A stretch of 32,000 nucleotides of DNA. Source: Gemmata obscuriglobus. GTDB lineage: Bacteria > Planctomycetota > Planctomycetia > Gemmatales > Gemmataceae. The stretch covers positions 2,640,001-2,672,000 of the forward strand of contig NZ_CP042911.1 of NCBI RefSeq assembly GCF_008065095.1. The letters are read 5' to 3'. Below, piece by piece: positions 3,247 through 32,000 of this stretch (its first letter is position 1; each line of letters begins with the position of its first letter). The notes beneath the pieces were generated by a model. It did no database searches. It was not told the DNA's origin and saw only the letters and a program-made list of their open reading frames with translations. The position numbers and the translations under genes are program-made.

Positions 3247-3915
3247 ATGAGCGCGAACGAAATCGACGGCTTCTCGGGCACGGTGCGGCTGTTTCCGCTG
3301 CCGAGCCTCGTGGTGTTCCCGCACGTGGTGCAGGCGCTGCACATCTTCGAGCCGCGGTACCGGCGGATGACCGCCGACGCGCTCGCGGGCGACGGGCTCA
3401 TCGCGATGGCCACGCTCAGCGCCAACGCCGACGAGCCCGCCGACCGCCCCGCGATCGAGCCGATCGTGTGCGTCGGGCGGATCGTCTGGCACGAAAAGCA
3501 CCCCGGCGGGAAGTACGACCTGCGGTTGCGCGGCCTCAGCCGCGCGCGGGTGGTCGAGGAGCTTGATTCCGACGCGCCCTACCGCACCGCCCGCGTGGAA
3601 CTGATCCCCGACACCGCGTCGGTGAATCTCTCCCGACTGACCGAGCTGCGCCGCGACCTCGCGGCGGCCGTTCTGCCGCGGTTCGAGGACGACTCGCCGG
3701 CCCAGCGGCAGTTGGGCGAACTGTTCGACGGGGACGCCCCGCTCGGGCAGGTGTGCGACGTCCTGGCGTTCGCGCTGCCCCTGCCCCCCGAGTTGAAGCT
3801 CGCACTTCTGGCGGAACCGCTCGCGGACCGCCGCGCGACGGCCATCGCGGACGCGCTGCGGGTCTCCGCGGCGCGTGCCGAGCGCCCGTTCCCGCCGCCG
3901 TTCAGCGCGAACTAA
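3247..3915 (+). CDS. LON N-terminal (substrate-binding) domain protein
   Basis: ATG at 3247 inside ORF 2929..3915. The segment VRLFPLPSLVVFPHVVQALHIFEPRYRRM...IEPIVCVGRIV...GKYDLRLRGLSRARV is the typical LON_substr_bdg / ATP-dependent protease La N-domain pattern. Confidence 0.7.
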   Translation: MSANEIDGFSGTVRLFPLPSLVVFPHVVQALHIFEPRYRRMTADALAGDGLIAMATLSANADEPADRPAIEPIVCVGRIVWHEKHPGGKYDLRLRGLSRARVVEELDSDAPYRTARVELIPDTASVNLSRLTELRRDLAAAVLPRFEDDSPAQRQLGELFDGDAPLGQVCDVLAFALPLPPELKLALLAEPLADRRATAIADALRVSAARAERPFPPPFSAN

Positions 3916-4984: not shown

Positions 4985-5084
4985 CTATCATGTACGTACC
5001 CGGTAATGCGGCCGCTTTTGTTGACGAGCCGCGACCGCCGGGGAGCGGGAGACGTGGCACCGCTCCCTGGCCAGTAGTTTCAAG
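4985..5084. repeat. IS-A left terminal inverted repeat (contains internal hairpin GGGAGCGG...CCGCTCCC)
   Basis: Sequence: ..TCATGTACGTACCCGGTAATGCGGCCGCTTTTGTTGACGAGCCGCGACCGCCGGGGAGCGGGAGACGTGGCACCGCTCCCTGGCCAGTAGTTTCAAG. Its reverse complement matches the right end. Confidence 0.65.
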
Positions 5085-6249: not shown

Positions 6250-6315
6250 GGGAGCTTCCCGTTCAAGTGCCTGAGAACCTTGAACTTAGGAACTCCCATG
6301 CGGCACTTCAAAACC

Positions 6316-6366
6316 CTTGAAACTACTGGCCAGGGAGCGGTGCAACGTATCCCGCTCCCTGGCGGT
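6316..6366. repeat. IS-A right terminal inverted repeat, inner part (interrupted by IS-B)
   Basis: CTTGAAACTACTGGCCAGGGAGCGGTGCAACGTATCCCGCTCCCTGGCGGT is the reverse complement of 5036-5084, with 3 mismatches. Confidence 0.65.
6357..6366. repeat. target-site duplication of IS-B (left copy, CCCTGGCGGT)
   Basis: The identical 10-mer directly abuts both ends of IS-B, at 6357-6366 and 7840-7849. Confidence 0.75.
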
Positions 6367-7839
6367 TAATGGCACTCGTTTTATGTTGGTGTGTGGTTGG
6401 TGGTGGTTCGCGGTTTGCGTTTTTTGAACTGGTCGGCTTTCGGGCGCCTCGGGTACGCCTCTCGCTCGTACCGGCGATCGGGCGGGCGTTGGGGTAGTCG
6501 GTCGCGCATGGCGTACCCGAGCGCCCGCTCGTAACCGGCGCGCCATTGCCCCGCCGTCGTGAACATCTTTCCCAGCAAGAACGTTCGGAACGTGGTCCAC
6601 ACGCGCTTAAAACTCAGCTCCCGTGGCCGGCACTTGGCCCGCTCGGCCGCTTGCCGGCGGAACGGCACCACTAGGTTGTACGACACCACCGACATCAGCA
6701 ACTCCTTACGGAACATCGCCTCGCTTCGCACCGCCATGTGCTCGGTGTTCAGCACCACCTTCACGTTCCGGATGTCCACTTCCACGGTGCCCCGTTGCCG
6801 GTACCACGAGCCCACGTCGCTGGCCGTGGCGTCCGTGTCCGTCACCACCGCCAGCGCCCCGCCGTTCGGTATGCTCACCTCGTGCACCCGCGCCTTCAGC
6901 TCGGCGTCCGCCGCCCACTCCGGGTGCTTGCGCCGCTCCTTGGCGCTGGGGCGCCACGCGAATTCCCCGGTCCACCACCCGTCCCCACGGCCCACCTCAC
7001 GAGCCGTGCGGCGGTATGCGGTGAACCGCGCCGCCGTCAGCCGGAACACGAACCCCAGGCCCCGCGCGCGAGCCCCGAGCGCCACCGCGAAGATCCCGAA
7101 CCCGGCGTCCGCCATCACCACCCCGTTGGCGGGCAGGCGGTCCATGACGGCCCCGGCCAGTGCCGTTTCCGACACCGCGTGGGGGCCGAACGTGGCCCCC
7201 ACTTCGGGCACCACGGCGGCCCCGCTACTCAACTCGTGGGCGACCACCAGCAGTGCCACCGGCCACACCCCGCGGCCGTGCGGGTTCGTGGCCGGTGGGT
7301 ACTTCTCGCGGAGCTCGGGTTCGGGGGCCAGGGTCCGGGTGGTGCCGTCGATCAGGAACACGCGCCGCCCGGACCACGTGGGCGGGGCACCGTCGATGCG
7401 CGCGCGGCTCACATGGTCGGCGAACCATCGGGCCGCTTCGAGCGGTAGCCACTGGCGGGCGTCGGAGTAGCTGCTGGTATTCGACGACAGCGCGTTCTCG
7501 CGCACCCGCTTGGTGTTAGGGAGCAAATCGGGTCGGGCGTCGAGCAGATGCTTGACGGTGGCTTCCAGGGACTTGTCGGGGTGGGTGCGCTGGTACACGA
7601 GCATCCAGAGGATGACCGAGGCGGTATACACGGCGTTGGCCCGCCGGGGGAACCGGGCATCGGCCTCGGATGGGTCGAAATGAGCGGCGAGGAGGTCGAA
7701 CGCGCGCTCGAACTCCTCGCCCGTCGGTCCGGAAGGCTCGGTCATGGCAACGGTTCCGTCGGTGGATGACACAACCAGTGCGCAATAACCGTGCCAACGA
7801 GCACCCGAAACACACCAAAACTGAAAACGAGTGCCATTA
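6367..7839 (-). mobile_element. IS element 'IS-B' (IS4 family), 1473 bp, nested in the right repeat of IS-A
   Basis: Perfect 16-bp terminal inverted repeats: TAATGGCACTCGTTTT at 6367-6382 and AAAACGAGTGCCATTA at 7824-7839. The element is flanked by a 10-bp direct duplication. Removing IS-B plus one duplication copy restores the IS-A repeat. Confidence 0.8.
6381..7745 (-). CDS. IS4-family DDE transposase of IS-B
   Basis: Start taken at ATG 7745 (MTEPSGPTGEEF...). The longer ORF reaching 7910 would begin outside the element. Motifs are RVFLIDGT, VVMADAGF and YRQRGTVEVDIRNVK (YREK-like). Confidence 0.85.
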   Translation of the reverse strand: MTEPSGPTGEEFERAFDLLAAHFDPSEADARFPRRANAVYTASVILWMLVYQRTHPDKSLEATVKHLLDARPDLLPNTKRVRENALSSNTSSYSDARQWLPLEAARWFADHVSRARIDGAPPTWSGRRVFLIDGTTRTLAPEPELREKYPPATNPHGRGVWPVALLVVAHELSSGAAVVPEVGATFGPHAVSETALAGAVMDRLPANGVVMADAGFGIFAVALGARARGLGFVFRLTAARFTAYRRTAREVGRGDGWWTGEFAWRPSAKERRKHPEWAADAELKARVHEVSIPNGGALAVVTDTDATASDVGSWYRQRGTVEVDIRNVKVVLNTEHMAVRSEAMFRKELLMSVVSYNLVVPFRRQAAERAKCRPRELSFKRVWTTFRTFLLGKMFTTAGQWRAGYERALGYAMRDRLPQRPPDRRYEREAYPRRPKADQFKKRKPRTTTNHTPT

Positions 7840-7849
7840 CCCTGGCGGT
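7840..7849. repeat. target-site duplication of IS-B (right copy, CCCTGGCGGT)
   Basis: See 6357-6366. Confidence 0.75.
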
Positions 7850-7897
7850 CGCGGCTCGTCAACAAAGCGACACCGCGGGTGGGTTCATGTATCAGGC
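7850..7897. repeat. IS-A right terminal inverted repeat, outer part
   Basis: CGCGGCTCGTCAACAAAGCGACACCGCGGGTGGGTTCATGTATCAGGC continues the match to the reverse complement of the left repeat. Confidence 0.55.
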
Positions 7898-13480: not shown

Positions 13481-13812
13481 GTGTTTTCCCCGCTCCCACC
13501 CTGATCCGCCACAGCCCGCTCCGGTCCCTCCGCCCGCGGTGCGAGCGGCCCGAGTCGATCCGGAGGTGCCTTCAACGAACCAATCGACGGGTCGCGCGGA
13601 AGTATTTAGCTAGTTTGTCGGTCGAATCGGAAATTTCTTTGTTTTCGTTCAAGTTCCGGGCAAGCGCCGCGAGGTGGGCAGGTTCCGCGAGCGCGGCAGC
13701 CCTGGCGCTCCGGTGCGGCGGGCAAGAGTAGGGAACCGTACGCTTGAGGCGCCGGCCCGTTCGCGATAGGCTGAGCGGAGTCGTCAACGAGTCCCGCACC
13801 GAGGAGGTCACC

Positions 13813-22587: not shown

Positions 22588-22726
22588 CATACATGACCAC
22601 ACGACCACCTGCGGTGTCGCTTGTGTTGACGAGCCGCGACCGCCAGGGAGCGGGATACGTGGCAACGCTCCCTGGCGGTCGCGGCTCGTTAAGACAGCGG
22701 TAGCATTACCGGATACGTGTATCAGG
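22588..22726. mobile_element. MITE-like palindromic element (~140 bp), an internally deleted derivative of IS-A in the opposite orientation
   Basis: The left part matches the reverse complement of the outer IS-A right repeat. The right part matches the reverse complement of the outer IS-A left repeat. The junction falls at CGCTCCCTGG|CGGTCGCGG. The whole element folds as a long hairpin: GACGAGCCGCGACCGCCAGGGAGCG...CGCTCCCTGGCGGTCGCGGCTCGT. Confidence 0.65.
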
Positions 22727-25247: not shown

Positions 25248-25401
25248 GCCGCGTCGTTCCTGGCGGAGGGGAGAAGCGTAGCCTACCCGCGTGCCGGCGC
25301 AACGGGAAGTGCTTCGCCGACCGACGGAGCTAAAGCGCGGTTATCAGAAGCCGGGGTTTTGCTCACCCTTCTGGGCAGGCCAATATTGCGTCGGCCGACT
25401 T

Positions 25402-25493
25402 CAGTAGTTCCAAGTTCCAAGTAGAGTCACGAGCCGCACGAACCGTTGGAACTTTTGACGAGCCCTGGGCCGACTTGGAATCTGGAACTACTG
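25402..25493. repeat. imperfect palindromic element overlapping the 3' end of the toxin-fusion ORF
   Basis: CAGTAGTTCCAAGTTCCAAGT (25402-25422) against ACTTGGAATCTGGAACTACTG (25473-25493), with 19 of 21 positions complementary. The spacer contains CACGAGCCGCACGAACCG and TTGACGAGCC, which resemble the IS-A repeat motif TTGACGAGCCGCGACCGCC. Confidence 0.45.
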
Positions 25494-26008
25494 GAATTGC
25501 TACGACCGCACTCCACCCAGCATTGGCGGTGACGAGCAACTCCCGCCGCACCCCCGCTCTCGCCTCTTTGTGGGGAGCGGGCCAGTTCGATTTGTGGACG
25601 AATGAATTGCGCCAGAGCGGCGTCGCTCTCACCGCCCTTCTCTTCCAAATAGTCGGCGTAGACGAGCCGCGCGGTGTCGTCGTCCGGGTCGGCAGTAACG
25701 GCGGCCAGCAGCGCGGCTTCGGTGGACACGCGAGCACCCTCACGCGAACAGTTCCCGACCCACTTCACGGCCGCAACGTACACCACCTTCGCTGCGTCGT
25801 CGATGAAGAACGCGACGCACAGCGGGCGATGGAACCACAACCGGATGTCAGCCCGCTCGCGCGACTCGCCCAGGTCGAACGGCCGGTCGCGGAGCAACCG
25901 GTTAACGACATCGGCCAGTTCGGCGATCGATTCTTTCAGAAACGCTCGCGCCCACAACCAGCGCAAACGCGCCTCCGCGAGCGGCAGCCAGCGCACGGTG
26001 TAGTTCAT
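25427..26008 (-). CDS. RelE/ParE-like toxin fused in frame to a TIGR02996-type N-terminal domain, with a degenerate C-terminus
   Basis: Residues 1-86 read MNYTVRWLPLAEARL...IRLWFHRPLCVAFFIDDAAKVVYVAAVKWVG, which has the RelE/ParE pattern. Next comes (GTG)STEAALLAAVTADPDDDTARLVYADYLEEKG...FIRPQIELA, the TIGR02996 signature as I remember it. The last ~35 aa are encoded by the palindromic element. Confidence 0.55.
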   Translation of the reverse strand: MNYTVRWLPLAEARLRWLWARAFLKESIAELADVVNRLLRDRPFDLGESRERADIRLWFHRPLCVAFFIDDAAKVVYVAAVKWVGNCSREGARVSTEAALLAAVTADPDDDTARLVYADYLEEKGGESDAALAQFIRPQIELARSPQRGESGGAAGVARHRQCWVECGRSNSSSSRFQVGPGLVKSSNGSCGS

Positions 26009-26250
26009 CGCCCCTCCCGCAAATCGCGGAGGATGTCTTCGAGCGGCCGGCCGGGGCCGGTCTGATCGAACGCTTCCCTCAACTCTTCTTCCGTAAACGG
26101 CTCCTCAATCGGGATGCCCATCAGCCGGTCCAGCGCGGCCGGCGACAGCGCGTAAGCGATGACCGCCCCGGACTCGTCGCACAGTTGCACCGGTTGGCCC
26201 AGCCCGCTCAGTTTGGCCCGCGTCGCGGCGTCGAGAATCACCTTGCTCAT
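26005..26250 (-). CDS. putative antitoxin (81 aa)
   Basis: Its stop overlaps the toxin start by 4 bp (ATGA). It is small and acidic. MSKVILDAATRAKLSGLGQPVQLCDESGAVIAYALSP... resembles small antitoxin-like proteins found upstream of toxins in cyanobacteria and planctomycetes (from memory). Confidence 0.5.
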   Translation of the reverse strand: MSKVILDAATRAKLSGLGQPVQLCDESGAVIAYALSPAALDRLMGIPIEEPFTEEELREAFDQTGPGRPLEDILRDLREGR

Positions 26251-26743
26251 GTGTCACCTCCTCCACGCATGATACCACCCGCGGCGGGTCAACAGAACGG
26301 GGACCGAAGCCCCGTCGCGAACCGCGCCACGCCTTCAGCGCGTCGTCGTGCCGGCCCCAGCTCGGCGGTAGGTCGGCCCTCCGGCAGTTCGCCAGCGCCG
26401 TCTTCGCGCCGGCGAGGCGGTGAAGATCGCTTTCAGGTTCGGCACAGTCGAGCCCCTGGGTGAACGGCAGAGCAGAAGTGCGGGCGCGCGCAACTGACGA
26501 GCCCAGTGTGTGGGAAGGGGTCGCCCGGATGGAATCGCGAGCGGTGCGACGAGTGCGGCGCCGGCGGAACGAGACGGGCGAACGCGCACGCGGTCAGTGG
26601 ACCGAAAAGGGACAAGGGTCTTGAGCACGGGAGACGTGCGGGGGTACACTTCGGGCGTGTTGGCCCGAGAGAACGCGCTGGCTCACGAAAGTCGGATGCA
26701 AAGGTCACCGGGCGCAGCATCGGAATGACGTTCGCGCGAACCG

Positions 26744-26809
26744 TTACCGTGTTATTGTGCGAGCCGTGAAGGGTAGGGCTCAGTTTCGCACGGCCCATTA
26801 CCGTGTTAT
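26744..26809 (+). repeat. 12-bp perfect direct repeat TTACCGTGTTAT (26744-26755 and 26798-26809) in the ORF-less leader region
   Basis: Exact duplication 54 bp apart. A related CCGTGTTATTG occurs inside repeat B2 at 29549-29559. Confidence 0.6.
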
Positions 26810-26882
26810 GTCGCATATTGTGGAGATATGCCGTCACATGGTAACATAAGGCCGTTGAGTCGTTCGGTTCCTGACTCGCGGT

Positions 26883-26942
26883 GCGCCGGGCGAAATTGCC
26901 GCACTAGTGCACGAATCATCGCACATTAAACACCGGTTCGGC
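26883..26942 (+). repeat. B-type repeat B1 (ends in GGTTCGGC), upstream of the first cassette ORF
   Basis: GCGCCGGGCGAAATTGCC...CGAATCATCGCACATTAAACACCGGTTCGGC is homologous to 29531-29592. Confidence 0.6.
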
Positions 26943-26967
26943 ACCAGAAGGACGCAAACGGCGGGCG

Positions 26968-27498
26968 ATGACCAAGGATGAATGGCTGTCCTGCACCGAC
27001 GCGATGGCGATGTTGCAGTTCCTTCGTGACCAGCCGGTCTGTCGGCCGAGCTCTCGGCAACTTCGGTTGCTCGCTTGTGCTTGCTGCCGCCACGGATGGG
27101 ATCTTCTGACCGACCAACGAAGTCGCAACGCCGTGGAGATCGGAGAACGGTACGCCGACGGCCGCGCCTCGGACCGGAAACGCAGGAGTGCGTATCGGGC
27201 GGCCTCGGATGCCGCCAGAGCGATGCTTGGCGACATCGAACGTGCGGAGCAGGCCACCGGAACGTACGACACCGATGAGTTGGATGCCGCGGGAGCTGCA
27301 CTTACAACGGTTCTCACGAACCACCAACTGCGGTTGTTCGGTAGGCTGGCGAACTGGGACAAGGTGGTCTATCTCGCCCGCTACCGTGTCGGGCGCAAAC
27401 TCTGGGAGGACCTCCCGTCGGCCGAGGACGTGGCACCGCGACTGGTGCGGGACATCCTCGGCGGCCCTTTCGGCCCGGTTGCGGGCTCCCCCGTTTAG
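26968..27498 (+). CDS. hypothetical protein resembling the module that normally follows TIGR02996 domains ('headless' copy)
   Basis: 176-aa ORF containing W..CTDAMAMLQFL...RQLRLLACACCRHGWDLLTDQRSRNAVEIGERYADG...RDILGGPFGPV. I recognise this from memory as a Gemmata/myxobacterial paralog family. It ends 17 nt before repeat A1. Confidence 0.6.
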   Translation: MTKDEWLSCTDAMAMLQFLRDQPVCRPSSRQLRLLACACCRHGWDLLTDQRSRNAVEIGERYADGRASDRKRRSAYRAASDAARAMLGDIERAEQATGTYDTDELDAAGAALTTVLTNHQLRLFGRLANWDKVVYLARYRVGRKLWEDLPSAEDVAPRLVRDILGGPFGPVAGSPV

Positions 27499-27515
27499 CT
27501 CGTCGCGAGGGGGCC

Positions 27516-27605
27516 GCCGAGCCCGGCGTTGCACCTGACAACGCCATGTAGTTTGGACGGCATCGCGCCCTTGGAGGGACGGTGCAGGCGATCTGTACGT
27601 TCGGC
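27516..27605 (+). repeat. attC-like repeat A1 (most degenerate copy)
   Basis: GCCGAGC-CCGGC-GTTGCACCTGACAACGCC...GGACGGTGCAGGCG-ATCTGTAC-GTTCGGC. Confidence 0.6.
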
Positions 27606-27623
27606 CACCCGAGGACATCACGG

Positions 27624-28025
27624 ATGGAATCGCAAGAGCCGCGTGTTTCCTCTGACCCGTTCCAGGGTCAGCCCGCGCAGTGCCCGTGCTGCGGTGCGCC
27701 GTTCCCAGCGGCCGGCACCGATGTCGGTGAGTGGGTGGCCAGTTATGTGGCCGGTTTCGAACCCGATCAGATGAGGGTAGTCAGTAACACGTTGTTCCGG
27801 GGCAGATGCTCGGAATGCGGTACGGCTCTGTGTGCCCCGGGGACGGGAAAGCACACTTTGGGACGAGTGCGAGCCGGCCACGGTTGTTTGGTTTCGCGAC
27901 CGGCAAGCAGAAGTGACGCACCGCGTACCGGCCCCGCCCGCGCATTGGCCGCGTCGGGCACAGGTTCAGTAACATCGACACCGGCGCGCCGATCTTTCCG
28001 GAATGGCCGAGTTCAATCGCGATGA
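27624..28025 (+). CDS. small zinc-ribbon protein (CPCC...CSEC); C-terminal half doubtful
   Basis: ATG at 27624, 18 nt after the GTTCGGC of A1. The first ~75 aa look protein-like (two CxxC pairs). The rest is Arg/Ser/Ala-rich. Confidence 0.4.
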   Translation: MESQEPRVSSDPFQGQPAQCPCCGAPFPAAGTDVGEWVASYVAGFEPDQMRVVSNTLFRGRCSECGTALCAPGTGKHTLGRVRAGHGCLVSRPASRSDAPRTGPARALAASGTGSVTSTPARRSFRNGRVQSR

Positions 28026-28038
28026 GGCGAAACAAGAG

Positions 28039-28129
28039 GCCGAACCCGGCGCGGCACCTGACACCGCCCGCTGACTTGGATGGCATCGCTCACGGTATGA
28101 TGGCGGTGCCGGTGAACTGGATGTTCGTC
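28039..28129 (+). repeat. attC-like repeat A2
   Basis: GCCGAAC-CCGGC-GCGGCACCTGACACCGCC-33 nt-GGCGGTGCCGGTGAAC-TGGAT-GTTCGTC. Confidence 0.65.
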
Positions 28130-28142
28130 AACCCGAGGCCCC

Positions 28143-28580
28143 ATGCGTCGGAAGCGCTGGCTTGCACTCACCGTCGCGGCGCTCGGCCTCGTCGCATTGG
28201 CCGGTTGGGCGTACTGCCGTCCGCCTGCCGTCAACGCCCTCGACGCCACCGCGATCCGCTCCGTCGAAGTGCACATGTACCCGTGGGGCCACGAGGCCAC
28301 TGCACCGCCCGGAACAACGTCTACCGACTCTGCCGCGATTGAGGAGTTGGTAAGCGTGCTCCGCGCTGGCACCGAGGCCCAGTTTCACAAGTGCGGGTCG
28401 CGCGGGGGGCTCATCGTGCGGCGGTTGTTCGGTCGCCCGCTGTTGGTCGAGTTCCTACCCGGACACTCTGCCGAGTGGTACGAGTTCCATTACGACGGCA
28501 AGCCGTACCGAGTTCCACGGGCGGCGTTCGTGAACGCGATGCGGCGGTTCGGGGTCGCGGTTCCACTGGAGTGCCCGTAG
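28143..28580 (+). CDS. membrane-anchored or secreted hypothetical protein (145 aa)
   Basis: ATG lies 13 nt after A2. The N-terminal anchor is MRRKRWLALTVAALGLVALAGWAY. The stop is 1 nt before A3. Confidence 0.6.
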   Translation: MRRKRWLALTVAALGLVALAGWAYCRPPAVNALDATAIRSVEVHMYPWGHEATAPPGTTSTDSAAIEELVSVLRAGTEAQFHKCGSRGGLIVRRLFGRPLLVEFLPGHSAEWYEFHYDGKPYRVPRAAFVNAMRRFGVAVPLECP

Positions 28581-28581
28581 A

Positions 28582-28671
28582 GCCGAAACCGGCGCTGCAC
28601 CGGACACCGCCACCGGCCACCGTTGTGGTGCTCACTGCATCACGGCGGTGCAGGTGAGCTGTCAGTTCGGC
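28582..28671 (+). repeat. attC-like repeat A3
   Basis: GCCGAAA-CCGGC-GCT-G-CACCGG-A-CACCGCC-32 nt-GGCGGTG-CAGGTG-AGC-TGTCA-GTTCGGC. Confidence 0.7.
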
Positions 28672-28701
28672 GACAAGCTTCTTTCCAGGAGTCGCTTTCC
28701 C

Positions 28702-29316
28702 GTGTTGCGGTTGCTGGGACTCGGCTTGGGGTGGATCGCGCTCGGCGCGGCCGTCTCTCTCCTCCTACTGGGATTCACGGTCGGTGCGTTCGCCGTAGTG
28801 GTCTTGTCCGCCCCCGTGCTCGGCGAGGAGTACGGAACCGCGGTTGGACTTTCCCTGCTCTGCGTCGGCCTGCCGATCTCGTTCGTGCTCGCGGTGGCCA
28901 CCCACGAATTGGGGCACGTGTTCGCGGGCGCGTGCGCGGGGTTCCGCCCCCAGTTCGCCCATATCGGGCCGATCACCTTCACCCGGCGGGCGGGGCGCTG
29001 GAGGCTCGGGTGGGACGGGCGGCAGTCCTGGCTGGGCGGTCGGGCCGTCTGCGCCCGCCGGCCGGGGAGCCGGGCTCGCGTTGCGGCCTTCCTCTTGGCT
29101 GGGCCGTCGGCCAACTTGGTGACGGGTGTGGCCGCGGCCGTGTGGTTCGCCGACGCCGGATCGCCCGCGCTGCCGCGCTGCTGGGCGGGGCTATTCGCCG
29201 TTCAGTCCCTGTTCTTCAGTGTCGTAAACCTCGTGCCGGTGAGGTACCGGCGGCTCGACTCAGACGGACTTGCCCTCTGCCGGCTGTTCGCCGGTTGTGG
29301 GCTGAAGGGCGAGTAA
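28702..29316 (+). CDS. small membrane metalloprotease, M50/site-2-protease-like
   Basis: GTG at 28702 lies 10 nt after AGGAG (28687-28691). There are about 5 TM segments. HELGH sits in a TM helix, and NLVPVRYRRLDSDG resembles the NxxPxxxLDG second motif of S2P proteases. Confidence 0.55.
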   Translation: MLRLLGLGLGWIALGAAVSLLLLGFTVGAFAVVVLSAPVLGEEYGTAVGLSLLCVGLPISFVLAVATHELGHVFAGACAGFRPQFAHIGPITFTRRAGRWRLGWDGRQSWLGGRAVCARRPGSRARVAAFLLAGPSANLVTGVAAAVWFADAGSPALPRCWAGLFAVQSLFFSVVNLVPVRYRRLDSDGLALCRLFAGCGLKGE

Positions 29317-29323
29317 CAACCGA

Positions 29324-29431
29324 GCCGAACCCCGCGCGGCACCGGCCACGGCCATGCCACAATCTGACACCCGCGCGCGGACCCATGAGGCGCGGTCCTT
29401 GTTGACCGGGTGCCGGCGCTCGTTGTTCAGC
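29324..29431 (+). repeat. attC-like repeat A4 (divergent, 108 bp)
   Basis: GCCGAAC-CCCGC-GCG... ...CGC-TCGTT-GTTCAGC. The outer boxes, 5-nt spacers and 3-bp inner box are conserved, but the inner stem differs. Confidence 0.5.
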
Positions 29432-29530
29432 AACAGGGCCTGGTTGCCGCTTGGCGCCTCGGCCGCGTGCTGGTCTAATCGCATTTGAGCTGCCGTAGTA
29501 AGAGCACCGAGTCCAGCCCGAGCGCGTGGC

Positions 29531-29592
29531 GCGCCGGGCGAAATGGCCCCGTGTTATTGCGCGAAGCCTCGCACACTAAACACAGGTTCGGC
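29531..29592 (+). repeat. B-type repeat B2
   Basis: GCGCCGGGCGAAATGGCCCCGTGTTATTGCGCGAAGCCTCGCACACTAAACACAGGTTCGGC is homologous to B1. Confidence 0.6.
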
Positions 29593-29653
29593 GGCAGAAA
29601 CCGAGGCCGTGAATGGTCCATTTCGCATAGCCCTTGTGGGAGGGTTGATCCCC

Positions 29654-30037
29654 ATGCCTCGGCCCCTGTTGGCATTCGTTGTTTTCTCGCTGTCCGCCTC
29701 GCCGGGCATGGCCAGCGACTTGAAGGCTGTCATCTACGAGGTTCAGTCCGTCACTGTCCCCAGCGGGAAGCACGCCGGTGCAGACGGATTTCTCCTCCGC
29801 GCTGAACCCCAAGAGGGAGAGAAGGACGGCAGGACCGTCACCGTGCCTGACCTGAAGAGCGTCCGGCTCACCATCAATGGTAAAGCGGCTACACGGGCTG
29901 AGGTCATCGGGTGGGTGTCCGATCAGAGGTATCCGCGCGTCGAGGTGACGACCGATCCTCAAAAGAATGATGCGCCAGTTCAGCTCCGCTTCTACGGCTG
30001 CCCGCCGGAGTCGCGGGGGAAGAAGTCCGACAAGTGA
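29654..30037 (+). CDS. secreted hypothetical protein (127 aa)
   Basis: ATG at 29654 follows GGGAGGG (29638-29644). The signal peptide is MPRPLLAFVVFSLSASPGMA. Confidence 0.6.
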   Translation: MPRPLLAFVVFSLSASPGMASDLKAVIYEVQSVTVPSGKHAGADGFLLRAEPQEGEKDGRTVTVPDLKSVRLTINGKAATRAEVIGWVSDQRYPRVEVTTDPQKNDAPVQLRFYGCPPESRGKKSDK

Positions 30038-30066
30038 CGCGGTGGCGGGGTGGGTCGCAAAGGCAC

Positions 30067-30157
30067 GCCGAACCCGGCGCTGCACCTGACACCGCCATCG
30101 GATCTGCGTTATGATGCTCACTCGATCCTGGCGGTGCAGGTGAGCTATTCGTTCGGC
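30067..30157 (+). repeat. attC-like repeat A5 (best-folding copy)
   Basis: GCCGAAC-CCGGC-GCT-G-CACCTG-A-CACCGCC-33 nt-GGCGGTG-CAGGTG-AGC-TATTC-GTTCGGC. Confidence 0.75.
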
Positions 30158-30174
30158 CACAGGAGGGCTCGGGG

Positions 30175-30639
30175 ATGTCGTGGTTCCCGGACATGGGAAC
30201 GGCTTGCATGATCGCCCACGGGGATCACGTCCGTGCGGTCGGCTGGCTGTCCGACCAGCACCCGTTCCCGACGGGCGACACACCGCCCGAGTTCCTGGCG
30301 CGGCTGAAGGAGTTCTGCCGGCGGTGGGACGAAGGGTTGGGGCCGCTGGTCTGGGATGTCTTCATGGGACCGCACCGCTGCGAGTTGTGCGGCCGGTGCG
30401 TGGCCAGTGGCAACATCGGGGTGCCGGCAGGGGGTGTGCTGTTCGCCGCCCCGGAGATGATCGCCCACTACGTCGAGGTTCACAAGTACGCCCCGCCGGC
30501 CGAGTTCGTAGCGGCCGTGCTGTCGGCGCCGCTGCCCGGCACCAGGGAGTACGCGGTGGCGGTGGCGGCGTTCCGAGCCGTCGCGCTCCAGCAACAACTC
30601 GGCGAGCTGTATCGGCCGGGTCAGCCACCGCGAGCGTAG
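30175..30639 (+). CDS. hypothetical protein (154 aa) with a CxxC motif
   Basis: ATG at 30175 follows AGGAGGG. Motifs are WLSDQHPFPTG...HRCELCG...PEMIAHYVEVHKYAPPAEF. It looks like a conserved family, but I cannot name it. Confidence 0.6.
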   Translation: MSWFPDMGTACMIAHGDHVRAVGWLSDQHPFPTGDTPPEFLARLKEFCRRWDEGLGPLVWDVFMGPHRCELCGRCVASGNIGVPAGGVLFAAPEMIAHYVEVHKYAPPAEFVAAVLSAPLPGTREYAVAVAAFRAVALQQQLGELYRPGQPPRA

Positions 30640-30648
30640 CAAAGGCCG

Positions 30649-30741
30649 GCCGAACCGGGCGCGGCACCTGACACCGCCGGCTGATATGCGACGTGCCGAT
30701 CGTCCGTGGTGGCGGTGCCGGTGAGCTATTGTTCGTTCGGC
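30649..30741 (+). repeat. attC-like repeat A6
   Basis: GCCGAAC-CGGGC-GCGGCACCTGACACCGCC-32 nt-GGCGGTGCCGGTGAGC-TATTGTTC-GTTCGGC. Confidence 0.7.
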
Positions 30742-30760
30742 AACCAATGGGGGGGGCACC

Positions 30761-31903
30761 ATGCGACACGGCCTACTTGCTCTGGCGCTTCTGTTCGCCC
30801 CGGTCGCGGCACGCGCGGACGAGAGCGAAGACGCTGCGGTCAAGGCTGTGGAAAAGGTCTATGGGAAAGTGCTTCGTGACGCCAACCAGGTCATCACAGG
30901 TGTCGATCTCTCTGCGGGAGCTGCCCAAGGGCACCGGGTGACGGACGAGGAGCTGAAGGAATTGCTGCCCCTCAAGAGCCTGACCTCCATCGACCTTTCC
31001 CACACGGGCGTGACAAACGCGGGACTGAAGGTGCTCGTAGCCTTCAAAAGCCTCACGACCTTATCTTTGCACGACACCGGGATCACGGACGCCGGTTTGA
31101 AGGAGCTGGCACCGCTCAAGAACCTCACCGCCTTCAACCTGTCCAACACGAAGGTAACGGACACCGGTCTGAAGGAACTAACAGCAATCAGGAATCTCAC
31201 CGCTCTTCACTTGCGAAAGACAGAGATCACGGACGCCGGCCTGAAGTCACTGCCACCCATGAAAGATCTCACCACCCTTGACCTGTCCGACACGAAGGTT
31301 ACGGACGCCGGTCTGAAGGCGCTGGCACCGCTCGAGCGGTTGACGAACCTCTACCTGTACAACACGGAGGTCACGGACACCGGATTGAAGGAACTGGCTC
31401 CGTCGAAGAACCTCGCCGTCCTGCTCCTGTACAACACGAAGGTCACAGACGCGGGGCTGAAGGAACTGGCTCCATTAAAGAGTCTCTCAGTCCTCGTCTT
31501 GGGCGAAACGGAGGTTACGGATGCGGGATTGAAGGAGCTGGCTCCACTCAAGAACCTCACGGCTCTCAACCTGTACGGCACGAAGGTTACGGACGCGGGG
31601 GTAAAGGAACTCGCGCCATTTCAGAACCTCACCCTACTCGACCTGAGCGGCACGAATGTTACAGACGCGGGAATTAAGGAACTGGCGCGATTCAAGAACC
31701 TCGCCCACCTCGAGCTGTCCTCCACAGCGGTAACGGATGTCGGCTTGAAGGAGCTGGCATCACTCAAGAAGCTCACCAAACTATTCCTGATTAGTACGAA
31801 GACCACATTCGCCGGAATTAAAGAGTTCCAAAAAGCCGCGCCCAAATGCGATGTCTGGAACACCCTGAGTCTTAAAGGCCAGCCCGCGCTTGGGAAGTGG
31901 TAA
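30761..31903 (+). CDS. secreted leucine-rich-repeat protein
   Basis: Signal peptide MRHGLLALALLFAPVAARA, followed by about 12 tandem 24-aa units of the type LKELAPLKNLTALNLSNTKVTDAG. Confidence 0.85.
   Translation: MRHGLLALALLFAPVAARADESEDAAVKAVEKVYGKVLRDANQVITGVDLSAGAAQGHRVTDEELKELLPLKSLTSIDLSHTGVTNAGLKVLVAFKSLTTLSLHDTGITDAGLKELAPLKNLTAFNLSNTKVTDTGLKELTAIRNLTALHLRKTEITDAGLKSLPPMKDLTTLDLSDTKVTDAGLKALAPLERLTNLYLYNTEVTDTGLKELAPSKNLAVLLLYNTKVTDAGLKELAPLKSLSVLVLGETEVTDAGLKELAPLKNLTALNLYGTKVTDAGVKELAPFQNLTLLDLSGTNVTDAGIKELARFKNLAHLELSSTAVTDVGLKELASLKKLTKLFLISTKTTFAGIKEFQKAAPKCDVWNTLSLKGQPALGKW
30926..31817 (+). repeat. tandem 72-bp coding repeats (LRR units)
   Basis: The DNA motif ...ACGGACGCCGGTCTGAAGGAACTGGCACCGCTCAAGAACCTCACC... 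recurs with a 72-bp period. Confidence 0.8.
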
Positions 31904-32000
31904 TGGCCCTACTGGCGGCACAGGTTATATCGGCGTGCGAAGTACCATAAGGCGCCCAAGTGGTTCCTGGGGCACTTGGAGAAGGTGAGTGTCTTCCGCA

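Follow-up and report, generated by a model that had tools for sequence, protein, structure and literature searches.

An orphan attI-like site heads a gene-cassette array without its own integrase in the chromosome of Gemmata obscuriglobus

The window analysed here, a 32 kb stretch of the Gemmata obscuriglobus chromosome, contains the first half of an array of gene cassettes with 13 attC sites and no integrase gene of its own, and its six repeats (A1 to A6) are genuine integron attC recombination sites. The array is very probably an integron gene-cassette cluster of the CALIN type, i.e. a cluster of attC sites lacking an integron integrase (Cury et al. 2016, PMC4889954). Elements of this kind are known, the small twist being a spare attI copy at the front: new here is that an orphan copy of the intI-to-attI region (B1) stands at the head, and that a partial copy (B2) lies within.

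Identity and structure of the attC sites

As put forward in the original prediction, six homologous repeats are present, all on the + strand (Table 1). The pattern GCCGAANCNGGCGCNGCACCNGACACCGCC, with up to three mismatches, matches in the whole 32 kb only at the first base of each of them, with a chance expectation of 0.00 matches (100 shuffles), and a de novo repeat search of the window recovers the family too (D2-D4). Re-reading of the sequence bore out the end motifs, the spacings between GTT cores (524, 542, 760, 726 and 584 bp) and the placement of the sites, which begin 1-29 nt downstream of a stop codon and, A4 excepted, have a start codon, with a GAGG-like motif, 13-31 nt further on.

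Table 1. Features of the cassette array and its left flank; R1, covariance model scores; L001, contig extension past the window end
Feature	Position	Strand	Details
Left flank ORFs	25427..26250	-	two small overlapping ORFs, 193 aa and 81 aa
Segment X	26541..26781	+	non-coding, upstream of attI-like site
B1	26782..26942	+	orphan attI-like site; GTTCGGC core 26936-26942
Cassette 1 ORF	26968..27498	+	176 aa, no family match
attC A1	27516..27605	+	R1 56.8 bits, E 1.1e-12, end to end; R'' GCCGAGC
Cassette 2 ORF	27624..28025	+	133 aa, two CxxC pairs
attC A2	28039..28129	+	R1 72.5 bits, E 9.1e-17; R' GTTCGTC
Cassette 3 ORF	28143..28580	+	145 aa, hydrophobic N-terminus
attC A3	28582..28671	+	R1 73.5 bits, E 5.1e-17; R'' GCCGAAA
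Cassette 4 ORF	28702..29316	+	HExxH membrane protein, M50-like
attC A4	29324..29431	+	R1 28.3 bits, E 2.8e-5; R' GTTCAGC
B2	29526..29592	+	partial attI-like copy inside array; GTTCGGC core 29586-29592
Cassette ORF after B2	29654..30037	+	signal-peptide-like N-terminus
attC A5	30067..30157	+	R1 90.9 bits, E 1.5e-21; best copy
Cassette ORF DUF7919	30175..30639	+	154 aa; Pfam PF25535, 98 bits
attC A6	30649..30741	+	R1 73.3 bits, E 5.7e-17
Cassette ORF LRR	30761..31903	+	secreted LRR protein, 380 aa
Sites past window	L001 2145-2235 (window-equivalent 32264-32354), 2601-2712, 3514-3603		R1
Sites past window, continued	L001 4092-4203, 4870-4959, 6060-6137; truncated 5' half at 6878		R1

A search with an attC-type model had been proposed as a check, and the covariance model R1, trained solely on 74 sites from loci outside the window locus, matches A1-A6 end to end at the exact boundaries first drawn (28.3-90.9 bits), the best match elsewhere in the window scoring 19.3 bits and the opposite strand at most 30 bits. 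It also detects six further full sites in L001. The sites are 90-108 nt long and share one layout, i.e. R'' (7 nt), 5 nt, 3 bp, a bulged G, 6 bp, a bulged A, 7 bp and a variable loop of 20-56 nt, after which the stem returns as 7-6-3, followed by 4-9 nt and R' (7 nt). The R box of the family is 7 bp (GCCGAAC/GTTCGGC) with an unpaired spacer of ~5 nt, and in the L stem of 3+6+7 bp the R''/L'' arm carries two bulged bases at a distance of 6 bp. A4 is a divergent, weak site in which part of the 3' arm is missing. The minimum free energy structure of the A5 bottom strand is the exact canonical attC shape (z = -6.2), and A5 is nearly identical to L024 5318-5407, a site in an intI-linked array of another member of the Gemmataceae; single-sequence folding of the other five of the six sites was no better than that of shuffles (z +0.07 to -1.7), in a 66% GC background.

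The stem is supported by compensatory changes across Gemmataceae. Paired cells make up 94.1% of the 74-site alignment as against 25-43% in slid controls, with a bias in the columns of the R''/R' complementarity and seven L-box pairs for which these reference sites had been filtered; compensatory changes occur in 11 pairs (153 cells), mostly at stem positions unused for site selection. For the 12 sites of the window array the paired fraction is 89.2% versus 25-42%, with compensatory changes in nine pairs. The family was thought to be specific to one genome; it is in fact common to Gemmataceae. A strict signature yielded 197 sites in 45 loci with a median core-to-core spacing of 507 bp.

Integrase and extent of the array

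No tyrosine recombinase was found in the window by tblastn with IntI1 and the genome's own IntI, in line with the original prediction, and the search of the genome revealed one integron integrase with the IntI-specific region. This protein (P0129) reaches 427 bits on TIGR02249 (cutoff 265) and can be aligned to VchIntIA (PDB 2A3V; E 3e-84) along almost the entire protein with hardly a gap. Its gene lies at CP025958.1 6,641,959 and the nuoN gene of the window at 5,355,111, i.e. ~1.29 Mb apart, and it is co-directional with an array in which at least 22 attC sites of this family form a homogeneous set, 17 of 20 copies being identical across 30 nt of the 5' arm. Sites of this family are located directly downstream of intI in this locus (L071) as well as in L024, L006, L043 and L078 of other Gemmataceae.

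The window array does not end at A6 but runs on past the window end. With at least 12 full sites plus a truncated one, and without intI, it can be classed as a CALIN. Both options offered beforehand, a CALIN-type array and an intI located elsewhere, hold, the sites matching in family those linked to the distant intI.

The attI-like copies

B1 is a paralogue of the entire region from the intI stop codon to the attI core of the genome's complete integron: by blastn, L071 10969-11134 matches window positions 26782-26943 (70.7% over 174 nt, E 4e-10), with the L071 match starting at the third nucleotide of the intI stop codon. B1 has its simple site, CTAAACACnGGTTCGGC, and its upstream CCGTGTTAT repeats in common with L071, L078, L024 and L006. 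Segment X, for which Rfam gave no match, forms together with B1 a module of ~400 nt, and window positions 26541-26942 show 76.8% identity over 422 nt (E 4e-84) to L078 3627-4046, which in G. algarum separates intI from the first cassette. A degraded copy of the module is found at the syntenic G. algarum locus L073. No intI remnant was found upstream of B1. The partial copy B2 is 89.6% identical over 67 nt to L071 11068-11133 (E 8e-19), and the interval from A4 to B2, 161 bp core to core, is without an ORF. Judged from these alignments, both copies are homologous to attI, and either may be used for insertion.

Cassette content, flanks and comparison with G. algarum

The content of the cassettes is broadly as anticipated, i.e. 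a CxxC...CxxC protein, two proteins with signal or transmembrane N-termini, and HExxH, DUF7919 and LRR proteins. The sole family match of the cassette 2 ORF is weak (IS66 N-terminal zinc finger, E 3.4e-4, far below cutoff), the cassette 3 ORF is alone in its 90% cluster, and the cassette 4 ORF scores 26 bits against Pfam Peptidase_M50, just short of the 27.2-bit cutoff. The likely start of the latter is GTG 28702, with AGGAG 10 nt upstream (mechanical ORF start 28648), and that of the ORF following B2 is ATG 29654 (mechanical ORF start 29543). The LRR cassette closes at the next attC, the first one outside the window.

Gene order is not fully conserved in G. algarum: synteny with L073 amounts to 95% as far as the left flank and is then lost, the divergence falling exactly at the array. 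The two left-flank ORFs had been taken for a toxin-antitoxin pair, for which there is no Pfam support even at E<=10; the larger one carries a TIGR02996 domain. The 5' part of the left flank (26156-26409) recurs at the distal end of the array (89.5%). G. algarum JC717 also has the cassette 1 ORF (90% cluster P0008), at L077 3005-3535 and flanked by two attC sites, with the homology starting precisely at GTTCGGC, and the left neighbour of this ORF differs between the two sister species. As read from the sequences, this change of context with a core junction shows recombination since the two lineages split.

Proposed mechanism and alternative explanations

According to established integron biology, the single-stranded bottom strand of each attC site would fold into a hairpin consisting of the 7-bp R box, the unpaired ~5-nt spacer, the L stem with two extrahelical bases and the variable loop, the shape of which would be recognised by the integron integrase, with cutting between G and TT of GTTCGGC. 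Each unit comprises one ORF, presumably promoterless, followed by an attC site of ~90 nt. P0129, which heads the larger and more homogeneous array of the same family and points in the same direction as its cassettes, could act in trans and excise cassettes of the window array as circles, which could then re-insert at an attI site; IntI may still be acting on these particular sites. Because B1 heads the array and B2 lies within it, the window array has the appearance of an integron platform, a former or a duplicated one, without an integrase gene.

It is conceivable, if rather doubtful, that this platform is a dead fossil, i.e. a decaying remnant with sites no longer recombined by IntI and with genes that have become pseudogenes or ordinary, fixed genes of the chromosome. 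Its sites score lower and more unevenly than those of the intI-linked array (28-91 versus 80-97 bits), and 8/12 of them, versus 14/74 reference sites, have a mismatch in the central stem pair CACC[T/G]G : C[A/C]GGTG, which suggests decay and makes present recombination competence uncertain. Further signs of this kind are the R'' of A1, which fits the loss of 8 nt compared with its G. algarum counterpart, the broken AAC triplet of A3 (AAA in place of AAC), the truncated final site (L001 6878) and the degraded attI-like module in the syntenic G. algarum region, where GTT has become GAT. However, the GTT core, R box, spacer and both bulges are intact in five of the six window sites, as is GTTCGGC in B1 and B2, and the different left neighbour of cassette 1 in the sister species, with its breakpoint at the core, argues for mobility. 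Moreover, imperfect stems are tolerated by integron integrases, the relaxed requirements of which are discussed by Cury et al. (2016, PMC4889954).

A second complete integron that includes the array, with its own intI just outside the DNA examined, is highly improbable. The distal side was followed for 5.4 kb beyond the window, to the contig break of L001, which leaves room for such a gene; yet in all intI-linked Gemmataceae loci seen, attI directly follows intI, which faces the cassettes, while upstream of 26782 there are non-coding DNA, two small ORFs and nuoN, and no IntI remnant. In addition, the distal end consists of a truncated attC followed by the left-flank paralogue, and a protein-cluster look-up gave a single IntI for G. 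obscuriglobus. Least credible is a reading as REP/BIME-like or terminator-type extragenic palindromes unrelated to integrons, the position behind ORFs then reflecting transcription termination or mRNA stability. Imperfect palindromes do stand right behind stop codons, one terminator-like match lies within A1, and the genome has other dispersed intergenic repeats (e.g. 5013-5071 and 22618-22676). But mapping of the copies revealed strictly co-oriented sites in arrays only (30/31 multi-site loci co-oriented), instead of a REP/BIME-like scatter, with no sites in the window's 26 kb of housekeeping DNA, and the same family directly behind intI in five loci. The asymmetric bulges conserved on one arm, needed for attC strand selection and not for termination, and the cassette junctions at GTT likewise speak against palindromes of this kind.

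Comparison with known integron systems

As a CALIN, the window array has two or more (13) attC sites, co-oriented and spaced by less than 4 kb, and no intI nearby, with IntI elsewhere in the genome, as for about half of the surveyed CALINs (PMC4889954). Its sites are likewise more heterogeneous than those of the complete integron, and its cassettes are of unknown or accessory function. It is above the typical size, 83% of CALINs having fewer than six sites (PMC4889954), and copies of the attI region at the head and inside are seldom part of CALIN descriptions.

Sedentary chromosomal integrons, such as the Vibrio cholerae superintegron with its VCR-type attC, are likewise chromosomal, with many small cassettes of unknown function and lineage-specific attC sites, which are highly homogeneous in the intI-linked array. 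By contrast, the window array is unattached to intI, the Gemmata intI is co-directional with its cassettes, the core is GTTCGGC (C at position 4) instead of GTTRRRY, and the extrahelical bases of the bottom strand are T and C instead of T and G. The layout of Treponema-type 'atypical' integrons, with intI transcribed toward attI (PMC3607928), is also that of G. obscuriglobus, G. algarum, Gemmata sp. SMAG_U3706 and Planctomycetota SCN18, where a co-oriented intI stands upstream of the cassettes. Phylum and attC sequence family differ, and the likeness is that of the main integron, not of the window array.

The Planctomycetes-specific attC covariance model (Ghaly et al. 2021, PMC8352920, Supplementary file 3) has the same R'' of 7 nt, 5-nt spacer, 3 bp, bulge and stem, the same preference for G at the top-strand bulge, the same pairing of 5' GCY-G-CA(C/G)C with G(C/G)UG-ARC, and near-invariant AAC and GTT triplets. 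Its consensus, unlike the Gemmata sites, is GCCTAAC/GTTAGGC-like, and G/C at core position 4, as in Gemmata, accounts for ~5-7% of emission probability. Its sequence-only filter HMM gave marginal matches to A5 (E 0.022), A2 (0.42) and A6 (2.1) and missed A1, A3 and A4.

The attI1 of class 1 integrons consists of a simple site plus the integrase-binding repeats DR1/DR2. B1 and B2, by contrast, as putative integrase-binding sites, do not adjoin an integrase gene, and past short motifs they have no sequence homology to attI1. Like attI1, both copies and the intI-adjacent site lack hairpin symmetry and have upstream direct repeats with GTTA (CCGTGTTAT), and the simple site that they share, CTAAACACnG|GTTCGGC, resembles the attI1 sequence CTAAAACAAA|GTTAGGC.

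Structure of the repeats

The reading of the six repeats A1 to A6 as sites of the attC type is supported. Direct reading of 26500-32000 revealed six homologous + strand repeats of ~90-108 nt, each placed after the stop of an ORF and before the start of the following one. A 30-nt degenerate 5'-arm pattern (≤3 mismatches) matched exactly the starts of those six in 32 kb, with 0.00 matches expected from shuffles, and the repeats were also recovered by a repeat search (families D2-D4). The end motifs, the distances of 1-29 nt from the preceding stop codon and the GTT-to-GTT spacings of 524, 542, 760, 726 and 584 bp all agreed with the original prediction.

Where RYYYAAC and GTTRRRY are expected, the 5' and 3' end heptamers R'' and R' are complementary (GCCGAAC...GTTCGGC, with R'' on the side of the upstream ORF); GTT is kept in all six window sites and AAC in five (A3 has AAA), and 96.4% of the R-box cells pair when all 12 sites of the array are counted. 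The deviation predicted at core position 4 proved systematic, i.e. a G/C pair is found there. In the model alignment, the 5' half of a site consists of R'' GCCGAAC, 5 unpaired nt, 3 bp, a bulged G, 6 bp, a bulged A and 7 bp, followed by the loop, the complementary 7, 6 and 3 nt, an unpaired stretch and R' GTTCGGC. The central spacer is unpaired on its 5' side (5 nt in every site) and its 3' side (4-9 nt), and the terminal loop of 20-56 nt is unalignable between subtypes. The top-strand G and A bulges lie on the R''/L'' arm, 6 bp apart, and correspond to C and T on the bottom strand. Both are present in A1, A2, A3, A5 and A6; in A4 the second position is C and the 3' arm is incomplete. The 6-bp spacing is shared with attC-aadA7, and the arrangement is that of the extrahelical bases marking the recombinogenic bottom strand.

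Covariance models and covariation

A naive structural attC finder, based on complementary xxxxAAC/GTTxxxx ends and folding energy, gave dozens of false positives across housekeeping genes. Since such a finder is useless in this GC-rich DNA (the window has 65-70% GC), a covariance model was chosen instead. This model, R1, was trained on 74 diverse sites from other loci, three of them from L071, the G. obscuriglobus locus with an intI-linked array, while L001-L003 and the window were left out; the attC layout was imposed on the alignment and searches were run with filters off. R1 matched all six repeats end to end, at precisely the boundaries predicted for them, and scored 32-78 bits on six sites of L001, a public contig prolonging the array beyond the window end. 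Its best match elsewhere in the window reached 19.3 bits, and the reverse strand gave ≤30 bits.

In the 74-site alignment, 94.1% of cells pair as against 25-43% with partners slid, compensatory changes occur in 11 pairs (153 cells) and the covariation score is 0.228 as against ≤0.071 in controls; the R box and seven L-box pairs of this alignment are biased by the selection filter, and the bulk of the covariation lies in columns 21-30, outside the selection, including one pair with C-G 32, A-U 29 and G-C 4 times. The 12 sites of the array itself are 89.2% paired (25-42% in the slid comparison), with compensatory changes in 9 pairs, in an alignment that is model-fitted and leans toward structure. 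For the bottom strand of A5, the minimum-energy DNA fold is exactly the attC layout (z = -6.2), and the single-sequence folding energy of the other five sites is no better than that of shuffles in this GC-rich background. As only A5 beats its shuffles, folding alone is not the evidence, and the structural case comes from covariation. Rfam returned nothing at the gathering threshold in the whole window.

An attC covariance model specific to Planctomycetes is available in the supplement of Ghaly et al. 2021 (PMC8352920), with the consensus GCCUAAC-AAUGC-GUU-G-CAGC ... GCUG-AAC-UUCGUC-GUUAGGC. The architecture of the window sites is alike, including the top-strand G bulge, and the G/C variant at core position 4 makes up about 5-7% in that model (PMC8352920). 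A rebuilt sequence-only filter HMM of this model (nhmmer) matched three of the six sites marginally and in register (A5, E 0.022; A2, 0.42; A6, 2.1), these being the best matches in the window. Marginal matches are expected, since the profile uses sequence only and the GCCTAAC type dominates it.

Coordinates of the window array and related features of G. obscuriglobus (L001 position + 30119 = window coordinate; scores are those of model R1)
Feature	Location	Strand	Detail
A1	27516-27605	+	56.8 bits
A2	28039-28129	+	72.5 bits
A3	28582-28671	+	73.5 bits
A4	29324-29431	+	28.3 bits
A5	30067-30157	+	90.9 bits
A6	30649-30741	+	73.3 bits
Further full attC sites	L001 2145-2235, 2601-2712, 3514-3603, 4092-4203, 4870-4959, 6060-6137
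Truncated attC 5' half	L001 6878
X (non-coding)	26541-26781
B1 (attI-like)	26782-26942
B2 (attI-like)	29526-29592
(A/C)ACCnGAGG-like motif	window 27606-27620, 28130-28140, 30158-30170, 26943-26955; L071 after most sites
Window proteins			locus tags GobsT_22540-22600 (exact protein match)
intI	L071 10001-10969	+	L071 = CP025958.1:6,631,959-6,652,927
Window nuoN	CP025958.1:5,355,111-5,356,655

Extent of the array and cassette content

The array outruns the window, with six more full sites on L001, each preceded by a small + strand ORF, so that it spans about 10 kb and comprises 12 complete sites plus a broken one, with core-to-core spacings of 161-1613 bp. The widest gap belongs to the LRR cassette, which is unusually long (1613 bp core to core) and contains a 99-aa minus-strand ORF (window 31909-32000, L001 1790-2089) with a weak DDE_Tnp_IS1 match, probably an IS fragment inserted in this cassette.

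The accessory content proposed for the cassettes was largely recovered, i.e. + strand ORFs for a CxxC/CxxC protein, two proteins with hydrophobic N-termini, a DUF7919 protein and an LRR protein; the presumed M50-like protease is an HExxH protein falling just under the Peptidase_M50 cutoff. The 'toxin-antitoxin pair' placed upstream (25427-26250) did not hold up, being only two overlapping small ORFs without family support. A TIGR02996 domain is also encoded in the window; this domain and the GC content are consistent with the exact protein matches, which assign the window to G. obscuriglobus.

Directly 3' of GTTCGGC, most attC sites as well as B1 and B2 carry a conserved (A/C)ACCnGAGG-like motif. 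Each cassette thereby has a Shine-Dalgarno-like sequence near its 5' end, always equally far from the crossover point. The sole sigma-70-like promoter match in 26200-32000 lies inside A5 (30086-30115; CTGACA, 18 nt, TATGAT), its -35-like hexamer being part of the conserved L'' arm common to most sites of the family; the match could be due to chance, the scan rules not covering Planctomycetes promoters.

The integrase and the main integron

As predicted, no integrase is present in the window according to tblastn with an IntI1 query and with the genome's own IntI, and neither an IntI nor a remnant of one was detected in the 26.8 kb upstream of the array or on its downstream side, which was covered for 5.4 kb as far as the truncated last site (tblastn; blastn with the intI gene). 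The suggestion that intI lies elsewhere in the genome was borne out by P0129 (WP_010036109), a G. obscuriglobus protein that clusters at 90% with the integron integrase of G. algarum and is already annotated as an integron integrase in RefSeq. P0129 scored 427 bits on TIGR02249 (cutoff 265) and aligned with VchIntIA (PDB 2A3V) near-gapless over nearly its full length (E 3e-84), including the segment between patches II and III, which sets IntI apart from Xer recombinases.

Downstream of intI and on the same strand, at least 22 attC sites of 90-92 nt run off the end of L071; they score 80-97 bits with R1, and the 30-nt 5' arm is identical in 17 of 20. Given the positions of nuoN and L071 on CP025958.1, intI is about 1.29 Mb away from the window array, which lies on the other strand of the chromosome. 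IntegronFinder defines a CALIN, i.e. a cluster of attC sites lacking an integrase, by the absence of intI within 4 kb (PMC4889954; the array also satisfies a limit of 10 kb), with at least two same-strand attC sites less than 4 kb apart, of which the array has 12 full and one truncated. By this definition it is the CALIN-type cluster that had been proposed, in a genome also holding a complete integron; the window array itself is not a complete one, with the attI-like B1 present and intI absent.

The first three cassettes after attI of the main integron (L071 11127-12318, CP025958.1 ~6.643 Mb) are paralogous, GC-rich and ORF-less, of ~425 bp, with internal ~100-bp repeats. Similar ORF-less units occur after attI in G. 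algarum (L078 4047-4082) and, in Gemmata sp. SMAG_U3706, in second place among the cassettes (L006 minus strand ~430-195); they may represent non-coding cassettes in the best-expressed positions. Rfam E-value scans gave no meaningful match either in these first cassettes or in the attI-like region of the window, the single match being a chance mir-228 (E 0.099).

The attI-like elements

A second repeat family, B, is found at 26886-26942 and 29520-29592, and both copies end in CTAAACACnGGTTCGGC. Neither B1 nor B2 adjoins an intI gene, yet both are homologous to the intI-adjoining site of the same genome. B1 corresponds to the entire stretch from the intI stop to the first cassette (L071 10969-11134 vs window 26782-26943, 70.7% over 174 nt), the homology to the real integron starting from the final nucleotide of the stop codon of intI, and B2 corresponds to the last 67 nt of the intI-to-attI stretch (89.6% identity). 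Cassette 1 abuts B1 exactly at the core, and no trace of intI was found upstream of B1.

At the integrase locus of G. algarum the order is intI, a degenerate attI (core GGTGCGGC), an X+B1-like segment with 76.8% identity over 422 nt to window 26541-26942, an intact GTTCGGC and the cassettes. Therefore, X+B1 is the same module as the one standing in front of an intI-linked array of the sister species. In strain JC673 (L078 3600-3631), the core of the intI-adjoining attI is mutated, with GGTGCGGC instead of GGTTCGGC, and a second, intact X+attI module heads the cassettes ~420 bp further on, i.e. the attI is in tandem. Since a degraded X+B1 copy is found at the syntenic G. algarum locus (L073), the orphan platform is older than the divergence of the two species.

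Comparison with G. algarum

Positions 13556 to about 26415 of the window are collinear with G. algarum contig 99 at 95% identity; collinearity reaches two small flanking ORFs and is lost beyond them. Cassette 1 (26968-27498) has a homologue of at least 90% identity in G. algarum JC717, located between two attC sites on another contig (L077). The two cassette-1 loci are alignable rightward from GTTCGGC and unrelated leftward, the left neighbour being B1 in G. obscuriglobus and an attC site in G. algarum. At the level of the alignment, this junction is the signature of integrase-mediated cassette movement with crossover in the core, and it reads alike for either direction of transfer between the lineages. 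Falling exactly on GTTCGGC in both species, it gives indirect evidence that an integron integrase recombines such sites as folded single strands.

The attC sites after cassette 1 (27516-27605 vs L077 3561-3641) share their arms, and the central loop is unrelated between the species. This difference is not predicted by simple cassette transfer and suggests exchange or conversion between attC sites. Upstream of the array, a 193-aa ORF (window 25316-26008) joins a small toxin-sized N-terminal part to the TIGR02996 domain; at the corresponding place in G. algarum (L073 1298-2797), the orthologue measures 86 aa and a distinct LRR protein of 384 aa comes after it, and G. obscuriglobus appears to have lost about 1 kb here, fusing the remnants. 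The whole array is bracketed by a direct repeat of 89.5% identity (window 26156-26409 and L001 7030-7282, i.e. window-equivalent 37149-37401), which covers the 5' end of an 81-aa ORF together with the DNA upstream of it, as well as the beginning of a 69-aa gene. The second copy is seen up to the end of L001, which stops inside it. This repeat may record how the platform was duplicated or moved.

Distribution of the repeat family

Among species-representative genomes, the 5'-arm pattern was found at 67 loci, almost all of Gemmata or Gemmataceae, in a scan that returned no G. obscuriglobus locus, though L071 has 17 exact pattern matches. Carriers include G. algarum, Gemmata sp. SMAG_U3706, IIL30, Bin_69, CJuql4 and a Planctomycetota MAG, and a locus typically has many copies in one orientation, with a maximum of 11 in 8 kb. 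A strict signature gave 197 sites at 45 loci with a median core spacing of 507 bp, and all sites were co-oriented in 30 of the 31 multi-site loci. The scatter between housekeeping genes that would mark a REP/BIME element was not seen, and no repeat of the family occurs in 26 kb of housekeeping DNA of the window. The co-orientation and cassette-sized spacing across loci thus indicate array behaviour rather than REP-like scattering.

With IntI1, tblastn detected proteins of 51-55% identity in four of the pattern-bearing loci. In two intI-linked loci (L024 and L006), the integrase gene is followed by a same-strand non-coding stretch ending in ...GTTCGGC and then by cassettes with sites of the window family, one of which (L024 5318-5407) is almost identical to A5. 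A contig of a MAG labelled uncultured Alcaligenaceae (L007, CAZKIQ010000141.1) encodes an IntI homologue (1050-1814, 55% identity to IntI1) and contains an exact match to the Gemmata 5'-arm pattern (3381-3410), representing either a mis-binned planctomycete contig or cross-phylum sharing of the Gemmata attC type. Another dispersed repeat of ~59 nt, which has no relation to the attC family, lies in intergenic DNA of the window (5013-5071, 22618-22676 and, inverted, 6312-6366 and 7840-7882). Its copies are 93-95% identical, occur in both orientations and contain a hairpin of their own (GGGAGCGG...CCGCTCCC). This repeat resembles a G. obscuriglobus element of the REP or MITE type.

State and significance of the array

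G. obscuriglobus is a 9-Mb planctomycete with unusual cell biology. Our data support the reading of the repeats as an integron cassette array, i.e. a CALIN of the G. obscuriglobus integron system. That this array is a fossil, no longer competent for recombination, seems somewhat unlikely to us, even with several features pointing that way: its sites are more heterogeneous and lower-scoring than the intI-adjoining ones, A4 is weak, A3 is without AAC, A1 has lost 8 nt, only a truncated site remains at the far end, and one stem pair is mismatched in 8 of the 12 array sites as against 14 of the 74 reference sites. CALINs are described as more degraded than complete integrons (IntegronFinder 2.0), and the state of the window array fits this description.

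It is tempting to speculate that Gemmata has a distributed integron in which one integrase gene serves several attI platforms, an arrangement that we regard as rather unlikely. B1, B2 and the attI-like simple site heading another G. algarum array (L011) would then be live sites used in trans, cassettes would be captured and expressed at several chromosomal places and not only beside intI, and the X+attI module would carry a promoter expressing the first cassettes.

The integron of G. obscuriglobus is a well-documented example outside Proteobacteria that does not overturn current understanding, and its novelty is modest, lying in the orphan attI copies, the Gemmataceae attC subtype and the co-oriented integrase. 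None of the papers searched combines Gemmata, integron and attC, and the IntegronFinder 2.0 text does not mention Gemmata; standard software would very likely call the window array. The new point is that a CALIN carries recognisable copies of attI, one at its head and one in its interior, with no integrase gene beside them. These copies offer a handle on the origin of CALINs by duplication or loss of a platform, not by insertion at random secondary sites, and lead one to ask whether several platforms could be served by a single integrase. For annotation, the small ORFs of the region should be labelled as integron cassettes.

The Gemmataceae have large homogeneous arrays, an integrase co-oriented with its cassettes, secondary arrays far from the integrase, and an attC subtype of their own with a GTTCGGC core, T and C bulges on the bottom strand and ~91-nt or ~112-nt size classes. 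The usual extrahelical bases of the bottom strand in attC sites are T and G. An integrase pointing toward the cassettes is an atypical layout described for Treponema (PMC3607928), and the main integron of G. obscuriglobus resembles it in this respect, its integrase being directed toward its cassettes.
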